From: a phage
Length of the DNA: 64,000 nt
Assembly: GCA_014161675.1 (NCBI GenBank)
Contig: GCA_014161675.1_4760.1
Strand: one strand, 5' to 3'
Shown: piece after piece, positions 47,002-60,276 of the stretch
How the letters are laid out: each line of letters opens with the position of its first letter
Numbering within the stretch: position 1 is the stretch's first letter
Position numbers and translations under genes: made by a program
Notes under the pieces: model-generated
The model's input: the letters and a program-made list of their open reading frames with translations, nothing else
Told to the model about the DNA's origin: nothing
The model's database searches: none

Positions 47002-47485
47002 ATTTTGCTAAATCATTGCAATATTTTAGTGCCTTAGTTTGAAATTCTGCGCTGTTAAGTTCTTCATAACGGTCATAATCACCGTTTAATGCTGCCTTTC
47101 TTGCTTCTTGCTCTATCTGCATGTCAGACATGATAATACAGCGATCCCGTGCTTTCATCTTCTCAAGTTGTATAGACTCTTCTTTCTGCTTGCGCAATTC
47201 TTCTTGACGCTTCTTTTCTTCTTGTGCTTTCTCTTCCCGCGCTTCTTTGATTGCATCCTTGAACATCTGCGTTTGTGGTTCTAAACCAACTTTAACGCGA
47301 TCCACGTCTCGACGTTCCATTTTAGAAATAAAGCACGATTCGATCTGATCATCACTTGCATATGCTGCTTTACATTCACGAAGCAAGAAAACCGGATCTG
47401 ATTTAGCATTCATCATAGCTTCCATGTTGGCACAACCAGTAAGCATGAATGCAGCCGCAAGACCAATCAGTTTAATCATTTTCAT
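47000..47485 (-). CDS. predicted lipoprotein
   Basis: Signal peptide with lipobox 'LTGC'; charged helical region; last gene of the alt operon. Confidence 0.55.
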   Translation of the reverse strand: MKMIKLIGLAAAFMLTGCANMEAMMNAKSDPVFLLRECKAAYASDDQIESCFISKMERRDVDRVKVGLEPQTQMFKDAIKEAREEKAQEEKKRQEELRKQKEESIQLEKMKARDRCIIMSDMQIEQEARKAALNGDYDRYEELNSAEFQTKALKYCNDLAK

Positions 47486-48306
47486 TTAGTCACCTCACCG
47501 AAAATTGTAAATTGTCTACGATTCTCATCACCGAAAGATTCTACTACGTCGTTTACCTTGACGCAAGTCCCGCGCGGTAAAATTACTTCACATTCGCAAG
47601 GATTCCATGCAATTGACCCAACAACAAAACCTTTATGATCTTTTACGTCAATTACCCATGATACATTACAAGAATGTTGCATCTTTCCGGTCATTGATTC
47701 ATATCGATTCTCACAATAAAGGCTAGTGCTGTTTGATAACCATCCTCCAAAGATGATCGGTGTCATGCTGGTAGATACAAAGTTTTTAAAGGTAAACTCC
47801 TTATCTTCAATGATACGCTCTATTGTCTGAATGTCAAGATGTTGACCGCGATAAAGAGTACCGTTTAACTTTTCGGTTTTATCCATGACGCAATCCATCA
47901 AATCGACAATCTCTGATATCTCATCGGTCATGTCTTCTTCCCCTAAGAGAGCACCATTTACCCATTCGTATTGCTCAGACACATAATCACAGATTGCATT
48001 ATATTCTGCTGGGGTTATGTTGTTATGTTTGTAATGTTTGAATACATTATCTCCAAAGTCTTCGGAGTGTACTTCATACATCACATTAATGATTTTCTTG
48101 ACAAATCCATAATCTTGTGTCTCACGCTCAAGGAAGCGGATAACCTTCACATAATCATCAAAGTTAATCTGATCGCTGATCATCTCAGTGATCATGTAAC
48201 CATTAATACCCTCAATGTCATATGTTTCGATGTAATTATCCATACGTTCCATCATTGATTCGCGTGATTCTTCCGAAAGACGAAAATCCTGTAATTTCTT
48301 GAACAT
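47482..48306 (-). CDS. ADP-ribosyltransferase, Alt-like paralog (R-S-E class)
   Basis: 'LYRGQ', 'FVSTS', 'CECEVILPRG' (R, STS, ExE motifs); shares 'IFGGW' with Alt; GGGAGG RBS. Confidence 0.7.
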   Translation of the reverse strand: MFKKLQDFRLSEESRESMMERMDNYIETYDIEGINGYMITEMISDQINFDDYVKVIRFLERETQDYGFVKKIINVMYEVHSEDFGDNVFKHYKHNNITPAEYNAICDYVSEQYEWVNGALLGEEDMTDEISEIVDLMDCVMDKTEKLNGTLYRGQHLDIQTIERIIEDKEFTFKNFVSTSMTPIIFGGWLSNSTSLYCENRYESMTGKMQHSCNVSWVIDVKDHKGFVVGSIAWNPCECEVILPRGTCVKVNDVVESFGDENRRQFTIFGEVTK

Positions 48307-48385: not shown

Positions 48386-50437
48386 TTACATTTTAAATTT
48401 ATCTGGCATTGCGTCTACAGATACCAGATCAGCGATAAGCTGACGTAGAGTTGCCTTATCTGCTTTCTTACGTTCGGTTTTAGCTTCGCTAATGAAGCTG
48501 GAGAAAGACAGGTCAGAAGCAGGTTTAATAACACCTTCACGGATGAATGCATCACCGTCCGCGATCATCTCGCCAGATTCTTGTAATGCTGCCAGTTCAT
48601 TTTTGTTCATAATATGTGCCTCAATGTAATAAGTTTCTTGTGAATCCGTCGATGCCGTAGCACGAGTTACCGTATCAAAGGATAACACAACACCGCGAGG
48701 AAGTAAAATCTCGCATTCTTTGTAAGCAAATGCTTTGTTACCTACTGGCAATACAGGGATGTTTTCCGCGCCAGCAATGGAGAAAGCAACATTAGCGCCA
48801 CCTTCACCGCGAGAGCCAGCCATAGAGTCAACACCAGCAACGGCACTAGCCACGTTTGCATTCCAGCCGCCAAAAATGTTAGGTGCAAGGGAAGTGCTCA
48901 CATAGTTTTTAAAGTAAAACGCTTTTTGCTTACGTGCAGTTTCCCACATTTGCGACCGGAAGTCCATACCACGATACAGAATAGTACCCGGATCAAGTTT
49001 AACGCCATAGTTGGAGAAGGCATTATCCAGTGCATCGCACATCTTGACCAATTCTTCTGGATCTGCGATGCCTTCAAACTCTTCCAGCTTACGGTCGGTT
49101 AGGAAGTTGTTCATATTGATGTATGCTGCATCGGCATATTCGCTCAACACAAAACCTTCCGCGCCTGGCAGATCAAGATCAATATCTGCCATCATTTCAC
49201 CCATGTTGCTAGCAATTGCTTCAAACATACCGGAGGCAACATTACGTAGGGCATCGGTTTTAATCTGGGTGATATGACTACGCAGCATTTCAGCTTTTAC
49301 ATCTGCTGGCATAGACTGGTCTACTCGATCCATTGCCAGGGCGGTGATCTTGTTTTCGAATACTTCCTCGCTCATGATTTCTTTTAAGCGTTTGACCGAG
49401 GCTGCGATAACTTCCGCAGACAATGGATCATATTGATCCTGAACTTTTACCAGTTCGCTTACTGCGTATTTTGCATCGGCTTCGCTTTCAAAAATAGTAC
49501 GCATGAAACCATAGCGAGTGATAATATCACTTGTCCAGTCATTCAGAGAACGAGCGGTTGAACGTTCTAAGGCTTGACGGTCAATCAGAGTATTAAACTG
49601 TTTCTTAGGTTCTGCTTCGGTGATATCTTCTTCCGGTTTAAGATTAATTTTTTCTGGATGATTCACATAGTCGCTGTTATAGGTCGCTTGAGTTTTCAGC
49701 ATTTCTTCTTTAGTCAAACGAGATTTAGCCGCTACGCGTTGTTCTGCTTCCGCGTTTCGTTCTTCTTCTGACACAAGACTAGCCGCATATGCCTCATCTT
49801 TAGTCAGAGATTCACCAGTAGCCTTAGATACCCAGCGATCACCTAAATCACTTTCTACTTTAGTGAACAAGGATTCATCAAGTTTAATCCCTTTAATCTT
49901 ATCAATCGCCATCCCGCGACGCTTGACAACAACTAAAGCGATCTTTTTGCTGGTCATTACTTCCTGCTGGAATACTTCAAACTTCGGTGTACGACGCACC
50001 AAACGCTCTATAACGCGCTTAACCAGTTCGGTCTTACCTTTCATGCGGGATACGTTAAAACGGAACATAACAGCGTCTAATTGCGCTTTACGGGCTGTTT
50101 CCATAACCACATCAAAAGCACTTGACATAACTGCAATCGGGTTATCGCCTAGACCATTTTTAAGCTGTACAATACGACCGCTTTTGTTCATTTCGCACAG
50201 TACAACATGTGCGGTCTTGTCACCCATACGAATGATTTTAGGTGTTTTGTTGGTGAAGTTACAAAGACGGACAATCACATCTTTATCGCGTGTCTGTACT
50301 GCAAAAAGCTGTTTAGGATTCTGCTTAGGCTTTAAGCACTGTACCGGAGCAATCCTGCCAAAGTTTTCTTCCTCTTCCGTCAACAGCCATTTCTCGAAAG
50401 ATTCAATCATTAGATCGTCGATTTCTAAGTTAAACAT
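48386..50437 (-). CDS. alt: Alt ADP-ribosyltransferase
   Basis: 683 aa (T4 Alt 682); 'ILYRGM', 'YVSTS', 'ECEILLPRG'. Confidence 0.8.
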   Translation of the reverse strand: MFNLEIDDLMIESFEKWLLTEEEENFGRIAPVQCLKPKQNPKQLFAVQTRDKDVIVRLCNFTNKTPKIIRMGDKTAHVVLCEMNKSGRIVQLKNGLGDNPIAVMSSAFDVVMETARKAQLDAVMFRFNVSRMKGKTELVKRVIERLVRRTPKFEVFQQEVMTSKKIALVVVKRRGMAIDKIKGIKLDESLFTKVESDLGDRWVSKATGESLTKDEAYAASLVSEEERNAEAEQRVAAKSRLTKEEMLKTQATYNSDYVNHPEKINLKPEEDITEAEPKKQFNTLIDRQALERSTARSLNDWTSDIITRYGFMRTIFESEADAKYAVSELVKVQDQYDPLSAEVIAASVKRLKEIMSEEVFENKITALAMDRVDQSMPADVKAEMLRSHITQIKTDALRNVASGMFEAIASNMGEMMADIDLDLPGAEGFVLSEYADAAYINMNNFLTDRKLEEFEGIADPEELVKMCDALDNAFSNYGVKLDPGTILYRGMDFRSQMWETARKQKAFYFKNYVSTSLAPNIFGGWNANVASAVAGVDSMAGSRGEGGANVAFSIAGAENIPVLPVGNKAFAYKECEILLPRGVVLSFDTVTRATASTDSQETYYIEAHIMNKNELAALQESGEMIADGDAFIREGVIKPASDLSFSSFISEAKTERKKADKATLRQLIADLVSVDAMPDKFKM

Positions 50438-51040: not shown

Positions 51041-51559
51041 TTAGTTATTTTTTAATTGCTCATCTTGCAATAGGGCAATCACATGCTGGCGATGTTCTTC
51101 CGATTGAGGCACACCGAAAAAGTTTGTTTTGTAGAAATACTCTAATCGGTCTTCTCGTGTGCTCTCTTCCATCATGATCGCGGGTAGTCCGAGATTTCGG
51201 AAACGTCGCTTTTCTGCTGGCGTAAAATCACTGTAATACAACATAGAATCATCATTACCAGCAATGCTAAACTCATCCTTCATAAAGGAGAATATTGCGT
51301 TTAAACGCTGTTTACCGTCCACGATTTCGATCTCATAGCGAGAGCCATCATCAATCTTAGCCATTGCGATAGCACCAACCGGAAAATCATTAATCAGGTT
51401 TTCGATAAACATACGTTTGTTTTCTGTGTCCCATACTAAAGGACGCTGATAATCTGGGTTCATGTTGATATAGCCATCTTCTAACCACGCCTCATAAACA
51501 GAGATTACAAAGTTTTTAGTATTGGTATAGTAACGGCGTTTAGGTGTTAAACGGTTCAT
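51041..51559 (-). CDS. DUF262 / ParB-like (GmrSD N-domain-like) protein
   Basis: 'YQRPLVWDTENK...IVDGKQRLNAIFSFM' resembles the DUF262 DGQQR region; ATG 51559 with AGGAGA RBS preferred over TTG 51595. Confidence 0.5.
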   Translation of the reverse strand: MNRLTPKRRYYTNTKNFVISVYEAWLEDGYINMNPDYQRPLVWDTENKRMFIENLINDFPVGAIAMAKIDDGSRYEIEIVDGKQRLNAIFSFMKDEFSIAGNDDSMLYYSDFTPAEKRRFRNLGLPAIMMEESTREDRLEYFYKTNFFGVPQSEEHRQHVIALLQDEQLKNN

Positions 51560-51560
51560 G

Positions 51561-51893
51561 TTATAGTCTCCTGAATGGATCATCACGTAAATCAATATCT
51601 TTTAAGAACTCATCCCATGAATGGCGGATATTGTTCTTAATTCTCCAGATAAGAGCAGGGATTGAACGCTCTCCCATCTGGAAGTATGGATCATATGATC
51701 CGTATGCCCAATATGCTACTACAATTCCACAATCAGCGCAATAGTATTCTATTTCACTTGCTGGCGACCAAAGTCCATCAATATGATCGGTGATCTTGCT
51801 TTCGATGTTATGGCTATGACAATCAGGGCAACGGATGCAATGACCTTGTTTATCGTAATTTGACGTTAGCGAATACTTAAACAATCTCATCAT
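51561..51893 (-). CDS. zinc-ribbon protein
   Basis: 110 aa with 'CIRCPDC' and 'CADC' Cys pairs. Confidence 0.5.
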   Translation of the reverse strand: MMRLFKYSLTSNYDKQGHCIRCPDCHSHNIESKITDHIDGLWSPASEIEYYCADCGIVVAYWAYGSYDPYFQMGERSIPALIWRIKNNIRHSWDEFLKDIDLRDDPFRRL

Positions 51894-57616: not shown

Positions 57617-58093
57617 TTATTTTTCTTGATGCTCGCGATCGTACTTTTCGAAATAAAATTCTACTGGCTGGTCGTGGATTGACAGCAAGCCAAAGCGTTT
57701 AGCCGCTCGCAATCCCATATTGCGCTGAATGTACTTCTGGAAGTTCTCGCGTATACACTTACGCCAGGATTCTAAGCCCATGCAGCTTTTATAAAGATTG
57801 CATTGCACACACGCCGGATTCATGTTATCAAGTATATCATGCTCCGGTTTATGCATTCCTACAACCTTATACTTCCACGATCCATCATCATTACGGGCAA
57901 TTCGTCCATTTTCATCATAGACTACCTTTGAGCGTCGCAATACTGGTTTGATGTGGTCTGCGTGCCAGCGATCCCCTAGTTCCTCGCCACAATAGGCACA
58001 ACGTCCACCATATTTCATTTTCAGGATCTGGCGTTGATCTTTCTTTGACAATTTTTTAGGTTTAGGGGCTTTCGCCCCTTCATTATCACACAT
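57617..58093 (-). CDS. HNH endonuclease (putative free-standing homing endonuclease)
   Basis: 'CAYCGEEL...HADHIKP...N...CVQCN' HNH/zinc motif; start overlaps ligase stop. Confidence 0.65.
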   Translation of the reverse strand: MCDNEGAKAPKPKKLSKKDQRQILKMKYGGRCAYCGEELGDRWHADHIKPVLRRSKVVYDENGRIARNDDGSWKYKVVGMHKPEHDILDNMNPACVQCNLYKSCMGLESWRKCIRENFQKYIQRNMGLRAAKRFGLLSIHDQPVEFYFEKYDREHQEK

Positions 58094-59582
58094 CGAATAC
58101 CTCTTTTACTGTATTTGCAGTGGTCTTGTCGTAGCGAATACGTTTGATGATTGGGAGAAATAAAGAGAACTCCGGTTCATCTTCTTTACGTGATTTGCTG
58201 CGGATATACCCGTTGCATGTCATCTCAATGACTTTGCCAACCAGGTTATGACGGTCAGCCCATAACATTTCTCGGTCGAGTTCATTTCGACGAACGAACG
58301 GAATTACACGTTCAGTACCATCATCACCTTTTTCGGTTGTAGTGTCGGTTAATCCCGATCCGGTGTTAGTCATCATTCGTCCGCACGCACTACGGACAGT
58401 AAAACCGCCTACCTTATTGGGGTCTTTACTATGCGGATATACGTCAACAATTTCCGCGTCGAAGTCAATCACTTCTTTAAATTTAACCTGATCTTTACTA
58501 CGGCGATCTTCAAATACACCATGTAAATTTTTAAGGATAATACCTTCTAAGCCCATGTTGACATAACGATGATATACTTCGCGAGCTTCATCGATATTGT
58601 TAACTACAGTATTTTCGATTATCTGAACACGAGGATCGTTAAGTTCTTCAACAATCTGTTTTAGTTCTTCGAATCGATCTTTATATTGCTTCGTTGCTTT
58701 CTCGTTTCCATAATACACATCACGGTCGATAACATCCCAGACAGTGTAAACAATACATTGGGCTTCTTCTTTTGGAATAGTTCCTTTAAGTGATTTGTTG
58801 AGGATACCATTTCCGGTCTGACGATCTGCAACAACGGATTCTTTCACTGCTTCCGCTACTGGCGTTAATGGCATTTCCTCTTCTTCAAATATCCATGACA
58901 GAGTACCATCATAAACGCTCTCAACGAAGTTCTGCGCTGGTGTTTGCGAAAGGGTAGGCATATATACCAATTCGCCATCTAGAACAATTCCACGGCCTCG
59001 TAGACGCTCTAAAACCGCAAACAAATCATCAAGCCCTTGATAGGTATTACCTGAGCGGGTATAGATTGCTAATGTTTCCCCGTCAATATCAGCCATACCA
59101 CGAGCGCCATCGCTTTTAAGTTGTGCATACGCCGGATACTTGATATTAGCAATAGTCTTATCAGAACATGACGATGCAAGGTGGCACGGCTGCTGGGGGA
59201 TCAGTTTCTTCCATACCTTGTTTGCAGTGGTAGCTGAACAGCCGCATTCCAGATCACGATTCAGGACCATCATTGCAACTTTAGCATCATCCTCTGACAA
59301 GCAAGTCAGAGTATCGGTAACTAGCTGTAATGCTGCATTACCAGTTACTTGACGCGTGGCAAGTTTATTTTTAAAGACCTGTAATGCACCGGATAAAGAT
59401 AATACAGACGAATAGCGAGATGGTTTATCGTATTTCTTTACGCCAAACGTAACCTGTTTGCAATATGCCAGATAAAAGCATTCTTTCAGCGTTTCATTGC
59501 TCGCGGATTCTTTCAGAATCTTTTCTTTCAGCGATGTTTTGTCTGTTGCTGCAAGCTGATTAATGATATTAAGAATTGACAT
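58086..59582 (-). CDS. 30: ATP-dependent DNA ligase gp30
   Basis: 'AQLKSDGAR' (KxDG adenylation motif), 'LDGELVY', 'EGIILKN', 'VKFKEVIDFD' collinear with T4 ligase; ATG 59582 preferred over GTG 59588. Confidence 0.85.
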   Translation of the reverse strand: MSILNIINQLAATDKTSLKEKILKESASNETLKECFYLAYCKQVTFGVKKYDKPSRYSSVLSLSGALQVFKNKLATRQVTGNAALQLVTDTLTCLSEDDAKVAMMVLNRDLECGCSATTANKVWKKLIPQQPCHLASSCSDKTIANIKYPAYAQLKSDGARGMADIDGETLAIYTRSGNTYQGLDDLFAVLERLRGRGIVLDGELVYMPTLSQTPAQNFVESVYDGTLSWIFEEEEMPLTPVAEAVKESVVADRQTGNGILNKSLKGTIPKEEAQCIVYTVWDVIDRDVYYGNEKATKQYKDRFEELKQIVEELNDPRVQIIENTVVNNIDEAREVYHRYVNMGLEGIILKNLHGVFEDRRSKDQVKFKEVIDFDAEIVDVYPHSKDPNKVGGFTVRSACGRMMTNTGSGLTDTTTEKGDDGTERVIPFVRRNELDREMLWADRHNLVGKVIEMTCNGYIRSKSRKEDEPEFSLFLPIIKRIRYDKTTANTVKEVFDV

Positions 59583-60048
59583 TTTCACCTCGTTTTGTTA
59601 AACGTTCACGAATATCATTGAGGATACTACAAAATTCCGATTCAGTCAATATAGTCTTTAACGGATCAGTTCCACCTATGCTATGACGTAATTTCTTATT
59701 TCCGGTAGAGAGTAATGCTTTACAAAATTCTGGGTTATTCCGTGCCATCGTAACAAATGCCAGATGTACCAGTCTGTAATAATGCTCACTCATTCGATGA
59801 ATCGGGCGACCCTGAAAATATAACATGTGATTCTCAATCTTTTCAGTTCTTCCGGTTCTTTTTGCTTTGCCACCGTGCATCAAAAAGATTTCTCTTTGTC
59901 TCTGAGGGTTCTTAAATCTTAGCCCCTGTAAAAATCCTTCTGTGCTGTTAATATCGCAACCAAATAGACGGAATGGTCTTTTATTGAAATTACTCAATTC
60001 ACCCGATGGATAAGGTCCACCCGCATAGATATCAATTTCAGAAGTCAT
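59569..60048 (-). CDS. NADAR (YbiA/DUF1768)-like protein
   Basis: 'IYAGGPYPSGELSNFNKRPF...INSTEGFLQGLRF' parallels YbiA 'INFYS..DYGDFSNF...TSEHYFQAQKF'. Confidence 0.55.
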   Translation of the reverse strand: MTSEIDIYAGGPYPSGELSNFNKRPFRLFGCDINSTEGFLQGLRFKNPQRQREIFLMHGGKAKRTGRTEKIENHMLYFQGRPIHRMSEHYYRLVHLAFVTMARNNPEFCKALLSTGNKKLRHSIGGTDPLKTILTESEFCSILNDIRERLTKRGENVNS

Positions 60049-60250
60049 TGAAACTAATCTCGCTAATCAGAGAGAACGGATCATAATCGTCATTAGGAAT
60101 ATCGATAGTAATCGAATGAGGGTTTACCCATACACCAAACTGGTCTTCTTCGGTGAATACTTCGGTATGGATTTCGTGGATGTTTACATTCATAGTTTTC
60201 ATAATAAAATTTCCTTAATAATCAATAACTTACAAAATCATATAGCCAAA

Positions 60251-60276
60251 ATATAGGCGGGATTATTACCCGCCGT
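60251..60276 (-). terminator. Terminator hairpin after gp31 (minus strand)
   Basis: GGCGGG-taataat-CCCGCC; U-rich tract follows on the minus strand. Confidence 0.45.

Follow-up and report, generated by a model that had tools for sequence, protein, structure and literature searches.

A Krischvirus homologue of T4 gene 30.3 (adfN) directly upstream of DNA ligase encodes a phage NADAR with a predicted role against DarTG1

Gene order and transcription unit

The window analyzed here, a stretch of 64,000 nucleotides of phage DNA (GenBank assembly GCA_014161675.1), comes from a Krischvirus, the RB49-like Straboviridae infecting E. coli, and some 60 Krischvirus genomes (RB49, FL38, MIZ6, and others) match its segment 58000..61500 at 98-99% identity. 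The minus strand carries, in order, RNA ligase 1, spanins, polynucleotide kinase, dCMP deaminase, a 31.1-like WYL_2 protein, the gene 31 co-chaperonin, a small open reading frame (ORF), the gene under study, DNA ligase, and an HNH endonuclease. The gene under study (59569..60048) is a 159-amino acid ORF running from ATG to TAA, which an earlier note on this DNA had described as NADAR-like; the ORF is real and lies on the minus strand, a point that note did not mention. It is a homologue of T4 gene 30.3/adfN, a relationship likewise absent from the earlier account, and encodes a single-domain phage NADAR predicted to act as a guanine-ADP-ribose DNA glycohydrolase.

The gene is codirectional with both of its neighbors and overlaps each of them. 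Upstream, the stop of a 54-amino acid ORF (60038..60202, minus strand; phrog_15277, a family of unknown function) overlaps the NADAR start by 11 nt, an arrangement that recurs in phage MIZ6 and in a metagenomic relative (L014) whose NADAR is 68% identical, and the two genes are probably cotranscribed and translationally coupled. Between this ORF and gene 31, a consensus scan located a terminator-like feature (60256..60274, minus strand), a perfect 6-bp GC hairpin (GGCGGG/CCCGCC) followed by a T-rich tail, which as read from the sequence may mark the upstream edge of the transcription unit. A promoter scan directly upstream returned no convincing promoter, solely this hairpin.

Downstream lies gene 30, encoding an ATP-dependent DNA ligase (58086..59588, minus strand), identified by PF01068 (E = 2.8e-22), phrog_114 (E = 3.6e-141), and the annotation of MIZ6. 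Its ORF opens with a GTG at 59588, and a GAGG ribosome-binding site precedes an ATG at 59582, which is the likely start and falls inside the last NADAR codons; the overlap between the two genes is 14-20 nt. The earlier placement of the NADAR gene directly upstream of ligase is thus correct in the direction of transcription, with the ligase start inside the NADAR 3' end.

This contact is, however, a matter of inherited gene order rather than a functional link. Coupling between NADAR and ligase was rejected as an explanation, since in other genera the spacing between 30.3 and ligase varies or is lacking: the intervening genes are 30.1 and 30.2 in T4 and RB69, one gene in Lazarusvirus, and three in Bragavirus, and the 2.5-kb flanks of the 30.3 homologue contain no annotated ligase in Jiaodavirus, Schizotequatrovirus, Ceceduovirus, and a rhizobiophage. 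The Krischvirus layout is a compacted form of the conserved interval from gene 31 to gene 30, kept in the 68% identical metagenomic relative, and, lacking counterparts of T4 30.1 and 30.2 in between, the NADAR gene touches ligase directly.

Two further ORFs on the minus strand are recorded as side observations. The HNH endonuclease gene (57617-58093) follows ligase directly, overlapping the ligase stop by 8 nt, at the place where T4 and RB69 carry alt.1 and alt, and it may represent a mobile homing-endonuclease insertion. A 184-amino acid ORF (51041-51595) matches GmrSD-type restriction endonucleases in their N-terminal domain alone (PF03235, E = 5e-20) and covers about the first half of phrog_1583 (a profile of 417 positions); it is perhaps truncated, or else a domain that stands alone.

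Family, fold, and conserved residues

The protein belongs to Pfam family PF08010, Phage_30_3 ("Bacteriophage protein GP30.3"), which it matches at 130.1 bits (E = 6.5e-38, gathering cutoff 36) with residues 13-148 aligned to profile positions 2-138 of 138. It also matches phrog_652 (E = 9e-45) and is colinear from end to end with T4 gp30.3 (NP_049816.1; 38% identity, E = 6e-30). With homologues found by tblastn in 1510 phage records, the match to a NADAR-like family is far above chance; for the family itself, a search of 1.8 billion representative proteins gave 1631 clusters at the 50% identity level. In all 60 Krischvirus records and in the other coding sequence–annotated records listed, the gene is entered as hypothetical or uncharacterized, a few adding the name 30.3 and none a function, and the practical value of the assignment is one of annotation, as "AdfN-like NADAR ADP-ribosylglycohydrolase" for records that carry no function.

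The model of cellular NADARs, Pfam PF08719, aligns colinearly to residues 14-120 but stays below threshold (15.6 bits versus 35.1, E = 0.02), as it does for 16 of 41 family members, the best of which reaches E = 3e-4. Because Pfam treats the gp30.3 proteins as a separate family, this miss is no argument against membership in the NADAR superfamily, in which the protein is placed by its predicted α+β YbiA fold, with core helices flanked by small β-sheets. The NCBIfam model "NADAR family anti-phage protein" scored far below threshold (14.3 bits versus 240), and PADLOC recognized neither the window protein nor T4 gp30.3. A profile search of PDB sequences built from single-domain members gave a weak match to YbiA (E = 0.027), which served for motif mapping. 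When fusion proteins were included in the profile, deoxyribonucleotidases alone were returned, because the profile then matched the fused C-terminal domain. The top single-sequence PDB match, a D-alanine carrier-protein ligase (E = 7e-4), was rejected, as it lacks domain colinearity and is missing from both fold searches.

The fusions in question are proteins of about 322 amino acids found by the hundreds in Bacteroidales (Muribaculaceae and Prevotellaceae), with an N-terminal NADAR of the gp30.3 family and a C-terminal 5'(3')-deoxyribonucleotidase (PF06941); examples are encoded at L010:6001-6984 and in L011-L013 (proteins P0009-P0123). They sit in a conserved operon made up of a SIR2 gene, three unknown small ORFs, an ARH-type ADP-ribosylglycohydrolase (PF03747), the fusion, and an unknown protein of 223 amino acids, adjoined by a RelA/SpoT gene. 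The same pairing occurs as separate genes in Vibrio phage VH7D (L006:2507-3458), where the gp30.3 homologue is followed by a 5'(3')-deoxyribonucleotidase gene with overlapping stop and start, a hint that part of the gp30.3 family has a link at the level of nucleotides.

Both motifs on which the NADAR signature had been proposed are present as quoted, the "SNF" within "LSNF" (residues 18-21) and "STEGFLQGLRF" spanning residues 35-45, and both align to the N-terminal "FSNF...TSEHYFQAQKF" of YbiA. The signature is confirmed. The codons of S19-N20-F21 lie at 59986..59994, those of S35-F45 at 59914..59946, all on the minus strand. Counted over 280 aligned family domains, S19 is Ser in 270 and N20 is Asn in 271. 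The catalytic glutamate, conserved across NADARs as E43 of PnNADAR, E88 of the E. coli C7 protein, and E36 of T4, is kept as E37 (GAA codon, 59938..59940), which is also equivalent to YbiA E48 and is Glu in 272 of the 280 domains.

Bioinformatic work has placed the gp30.3 proteins in a "phage NADAR" branch with a histidine at the position of a glutamate in YbiA and an aspartate in DarG1 (PMC11543638, PMC11125620). That histidine is present as H122 (codon 59683..59685, minus strand), just past the last β-strand of the model (residues 119-121), and it is His in 266 of the 280 family domains. The modeled C-terminal helix, residues 136-157 (codons 59578..59643, minus strand), opens with the conserved "TILTESEF" and is intact, whereas in the alignment with T4 and RB69 the RB69 allele stops at "...TILT" and lacks the helix.

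The one departure from the usual set of active-site residues is found seven positions past the glutamate, where NADARs carry a phosphate-coordinating lysine (K50 in PnNADAR, K95 in E. coli C7 DarG1, K43 in T4, K55 in YbiA). At this position, the window protein has R44 (AGA codon, 59917..59919), a residue that is still basic but is not lysine. The family-wide count is 268 Lys and 7 Arg among the 280 domains, and when Glu, basic residue, and His are read as a triad in 159 sampled near-full-length domains, E-K-H accounts for 141 and the rare E-R-H for 6. Arg44 is shared by relatives at 98% and 68% identity and by Acinetobacter phage KARL-1 (Lazarusvirus, 50% identity), whose motif reads "GFLQGLRESN" (L004:2492-2974) and whose protein is otherwise intact; two unrelated family members carry the arginine as well. 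Lysine is kept in Bragavirus, T4, RB69, Jiaodavirus, Schizotequatrovirus, and the other sampled phages. Retention of the arginine over such wide divergence, in proteins that are otherwise intact, suggests a maintained working variant rather than decay.

Predicted role against DarTG1 and alternative readings

The biology that would apply to this gene is already known, its fold, chemistry, and counter-defence role having been published for the T4 orthologue between 2012 and 2025. Purified T4 gp30.3 hydrolyzes guanine-linked but not thymine-linked ADP-ribose on DNA in vitro (PMC11125620) and is inactive on the cytosine-linked form (PMC12945103). Johannesman et al. (Nat Commun 2025) traced the DarTG1 resistance of T-even phages to gene 30.3, which they renamed adfN, for anti-DarT factor NADAR (PMC11825919). 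In that work, AdfN removes ADP-ribose from DNA and is both necessary and sufficient for T-even resistance; its deletion sensitizes the unmodified-DNA T4 strain GT7 and likewise wild-type T4, and T4 AdfN supplied in trans restores plaquing of RB69 on DarTG1 cells. In the same study, the E36A and K43A substitutions impair T4 AdfN, K43A leaving it partly defective, the RB69 allele without the last 15 residues goes with DarTG1 sensitivity, and T4 AdfN cut at the RB69 truncation point has lower activity.

By analogy with this work, the gene is probably the Krischvirus orthologue of T4 gp30.3/AdfN that counters DarTG1 by removing ADP-ribose from guanine. A host DarT1 toxin would ADP-ribosylate guanines in replicating phage DNA, and the phage protein, as a minimal NADAR-fold enzyme, would cleave the N-glycosidic bond between ADP-ribose and the guanine N2 amino group in DNA; removal of the adduct would let replication go on, making the enzyme in effect an "orphan antitoxin" carried by the phage. 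The proposal that the gene might serve as a counter-defence against DNA ADP-ribosylation thus gains support from PF08010 membership and from the published T4 orthologue. While the ORF, its family and fold, the Glu and His residues, the intact C-terminal helix, and the operon arrangement are established directly at this locus, the chemistry and the anti-DarTG1 role would be carried over from the T4 studies, and we infer that the Arg44 variant protects its phage well enough.

Our confidence in the role in vivo is good but not higher mainly because of a result obtained with DarG1 by Schuller et al., in which the K95R protein still hydrolyzes its substrate in vitro and yet does not rescue cells from DarT1 (PMC11543638). 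In addition, T4 AdfN fully works only in T-even infection, with no neutralization of DarT1 outside it (PMC11825919, PMC11125620); its behavior is therefore context-dependent and, at 38% identity, may not carry over. The published DarTG1 phage panel consists of Bas35-47, T2, T4, T6, and RB69 and includes no Krischvirus, and our literature search found no paper linking Krischvirus or RB49 with DarTG or NADAR.

Among the readings that depart from this one, it is conceivable, if rather unlikely, that the Krischvirus/Lazarusvirus branch has shifted to another substrate or partner, such as a different DarT1 variant, ADP-ribosylated nucleotides or RNA, or unmodified-cytosine DNA, and is not a simple AdfN equivalent. 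A related and also unlikely reading holds that the Arg44 form is attenuated or retargeted, hydrolyzing in vitro but giving no protection against E. coli C7 DarTG1 and acting on some other DarT1 variant or substrate or in another role. The behavior of DarG1 K95R and the rarity of the E-R-H triad described above would both fit such a form, as would the finding that, across NADAR subfamilies, activity in vitro does not predict protection in vivo (PMC11125620). Arginine can, however, still coordinate phosphate, and its presence in Krischvirus, the 68% relative, and Lazarusvirus, in proteins otherwise intact, is typical of a working enzyme. As a natural Lys-to-Arg variant, the protein bears on what separates NADAR activity in vitro from protection in cells.

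We regard as improbable a third reading, in which the enzyme is an N-glycosidase of nucleotide or NAD metabolism that acts mainly on small molecules (immune signals derived from ADP-ribose, ADP-ribosylated guanine nucleotides of the pool, or RNA-repair by-products) and not on DNA. In the view of Iyer et al. (2022), phage NADARs act mainly on low-molecular-weight ADP-ribose derivatives or in RNA repair (PMC9503650), and NADARs of the YbiA type are N-glycosidases on riboflavin intermediates (PMC11125620). The deoxyribonucleotidase fusions of many Bacteroidales, with their SIR2/ADP-ribosylglycohydrolase operon, and the separate gene in VH7D point the same way, as do window neighbors concerned with nucleotides and RNA repair, namely dCMP deaminase, polynucleotide kinase, and RNA ligase 1. 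These neighbors merely follow the conserved T4-like gene order, however, no deoxyribonucleotidase partner was found in the window, and T4 genetics ties the phenotype directly to DarTG1 and to the stripping of ADP-ribose from DNA.

The earlier suggestion that the enzyme might instead balance the phage's own ADP-ribosyltransferases (ARTs), reversing or limiting their modifications, found no support and is highly improbable: two adjacent ART genes do lie in the window on the strand of the NADAR gene, an Alt-like protein of 683 amino acids (48386..50437; PF03496) and one of 274 amino acids (47482..48306; PF03496, phrog_15144; no PDB relative by sequence), and alt stands just beyond ligase in T4, RB69, and Lazarusvirus, but both belong to the Alt-like/PF03496 exoenzyme family, annotated for RNA polymerase and other proteins rather than guanine and hence of a protein-modifying type, the T4 NADAR is specific for guanine and inactive on thymine- and cytosine-linked ADP-ribose (PMC11125620, PMC12945103), and the published T4 phenotype requires host DarT1 alone.

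Comparison with known NADAR systems

Set against the cellular enzymes E. coli YbiA (PDB: 2b3w) and Phytophthora NADAR (PDB: 8bau), the window protein is about 20% identical and has H122 in place of the last-strand glutamate that characterizes the YbiA family, to which it accordingly does not belong. YbiA, a host enzyme, has further been connected with N-glycosidase activity on riboflavin intermediates and with swarming (PMC11125620).

The protein differs equally from the DarG1 antitoxins (Geobacter lovleyi, PDB: 8bat; the E. coli C7 NADAR; the BC4488 family), which are recognized by a DarT1 neighbor and an aspartate in the last strand. It has histidine where they have that aspartate, it comprises 159 amino acids without an N-terminal extension compared with 219 in DarG1, and the structural alignment gives 11% identity. 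No DarT-family match was obtained by Pfam in the neighboring genes (ligase, HNH endonuclease, small ORF, gene 31, WYL_2, and dCMP deaminase) or in the larger window ORFs scanned, so that the window NADAR is an orphan gene.

Phage-borne orphan NADARs are also represented by AdfN-Bas32 and AdfN-Bas60, from T5-like phages and Vequintavirinae, and these two counter DarTG1. Their authors assign them to other NADAR branches and report independent acquisition, and unlike the gp30.3 type, they neutralize DarT1 without phage infection.

The closest counterpart is T4 gp30.3/AdfN, with which the window protein shares the PF08010 family, single-domain size, the catalytic glutamate, the phage-type histidine, and the C-terminal helix, as well as a location between genes 31 and 30 and a strand in common with ligase. 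It differs from T4 in having Arg44 for K43, in missing the 30.1 and 30.2 homologues, and in being separated from gene 31 by one small ORF.
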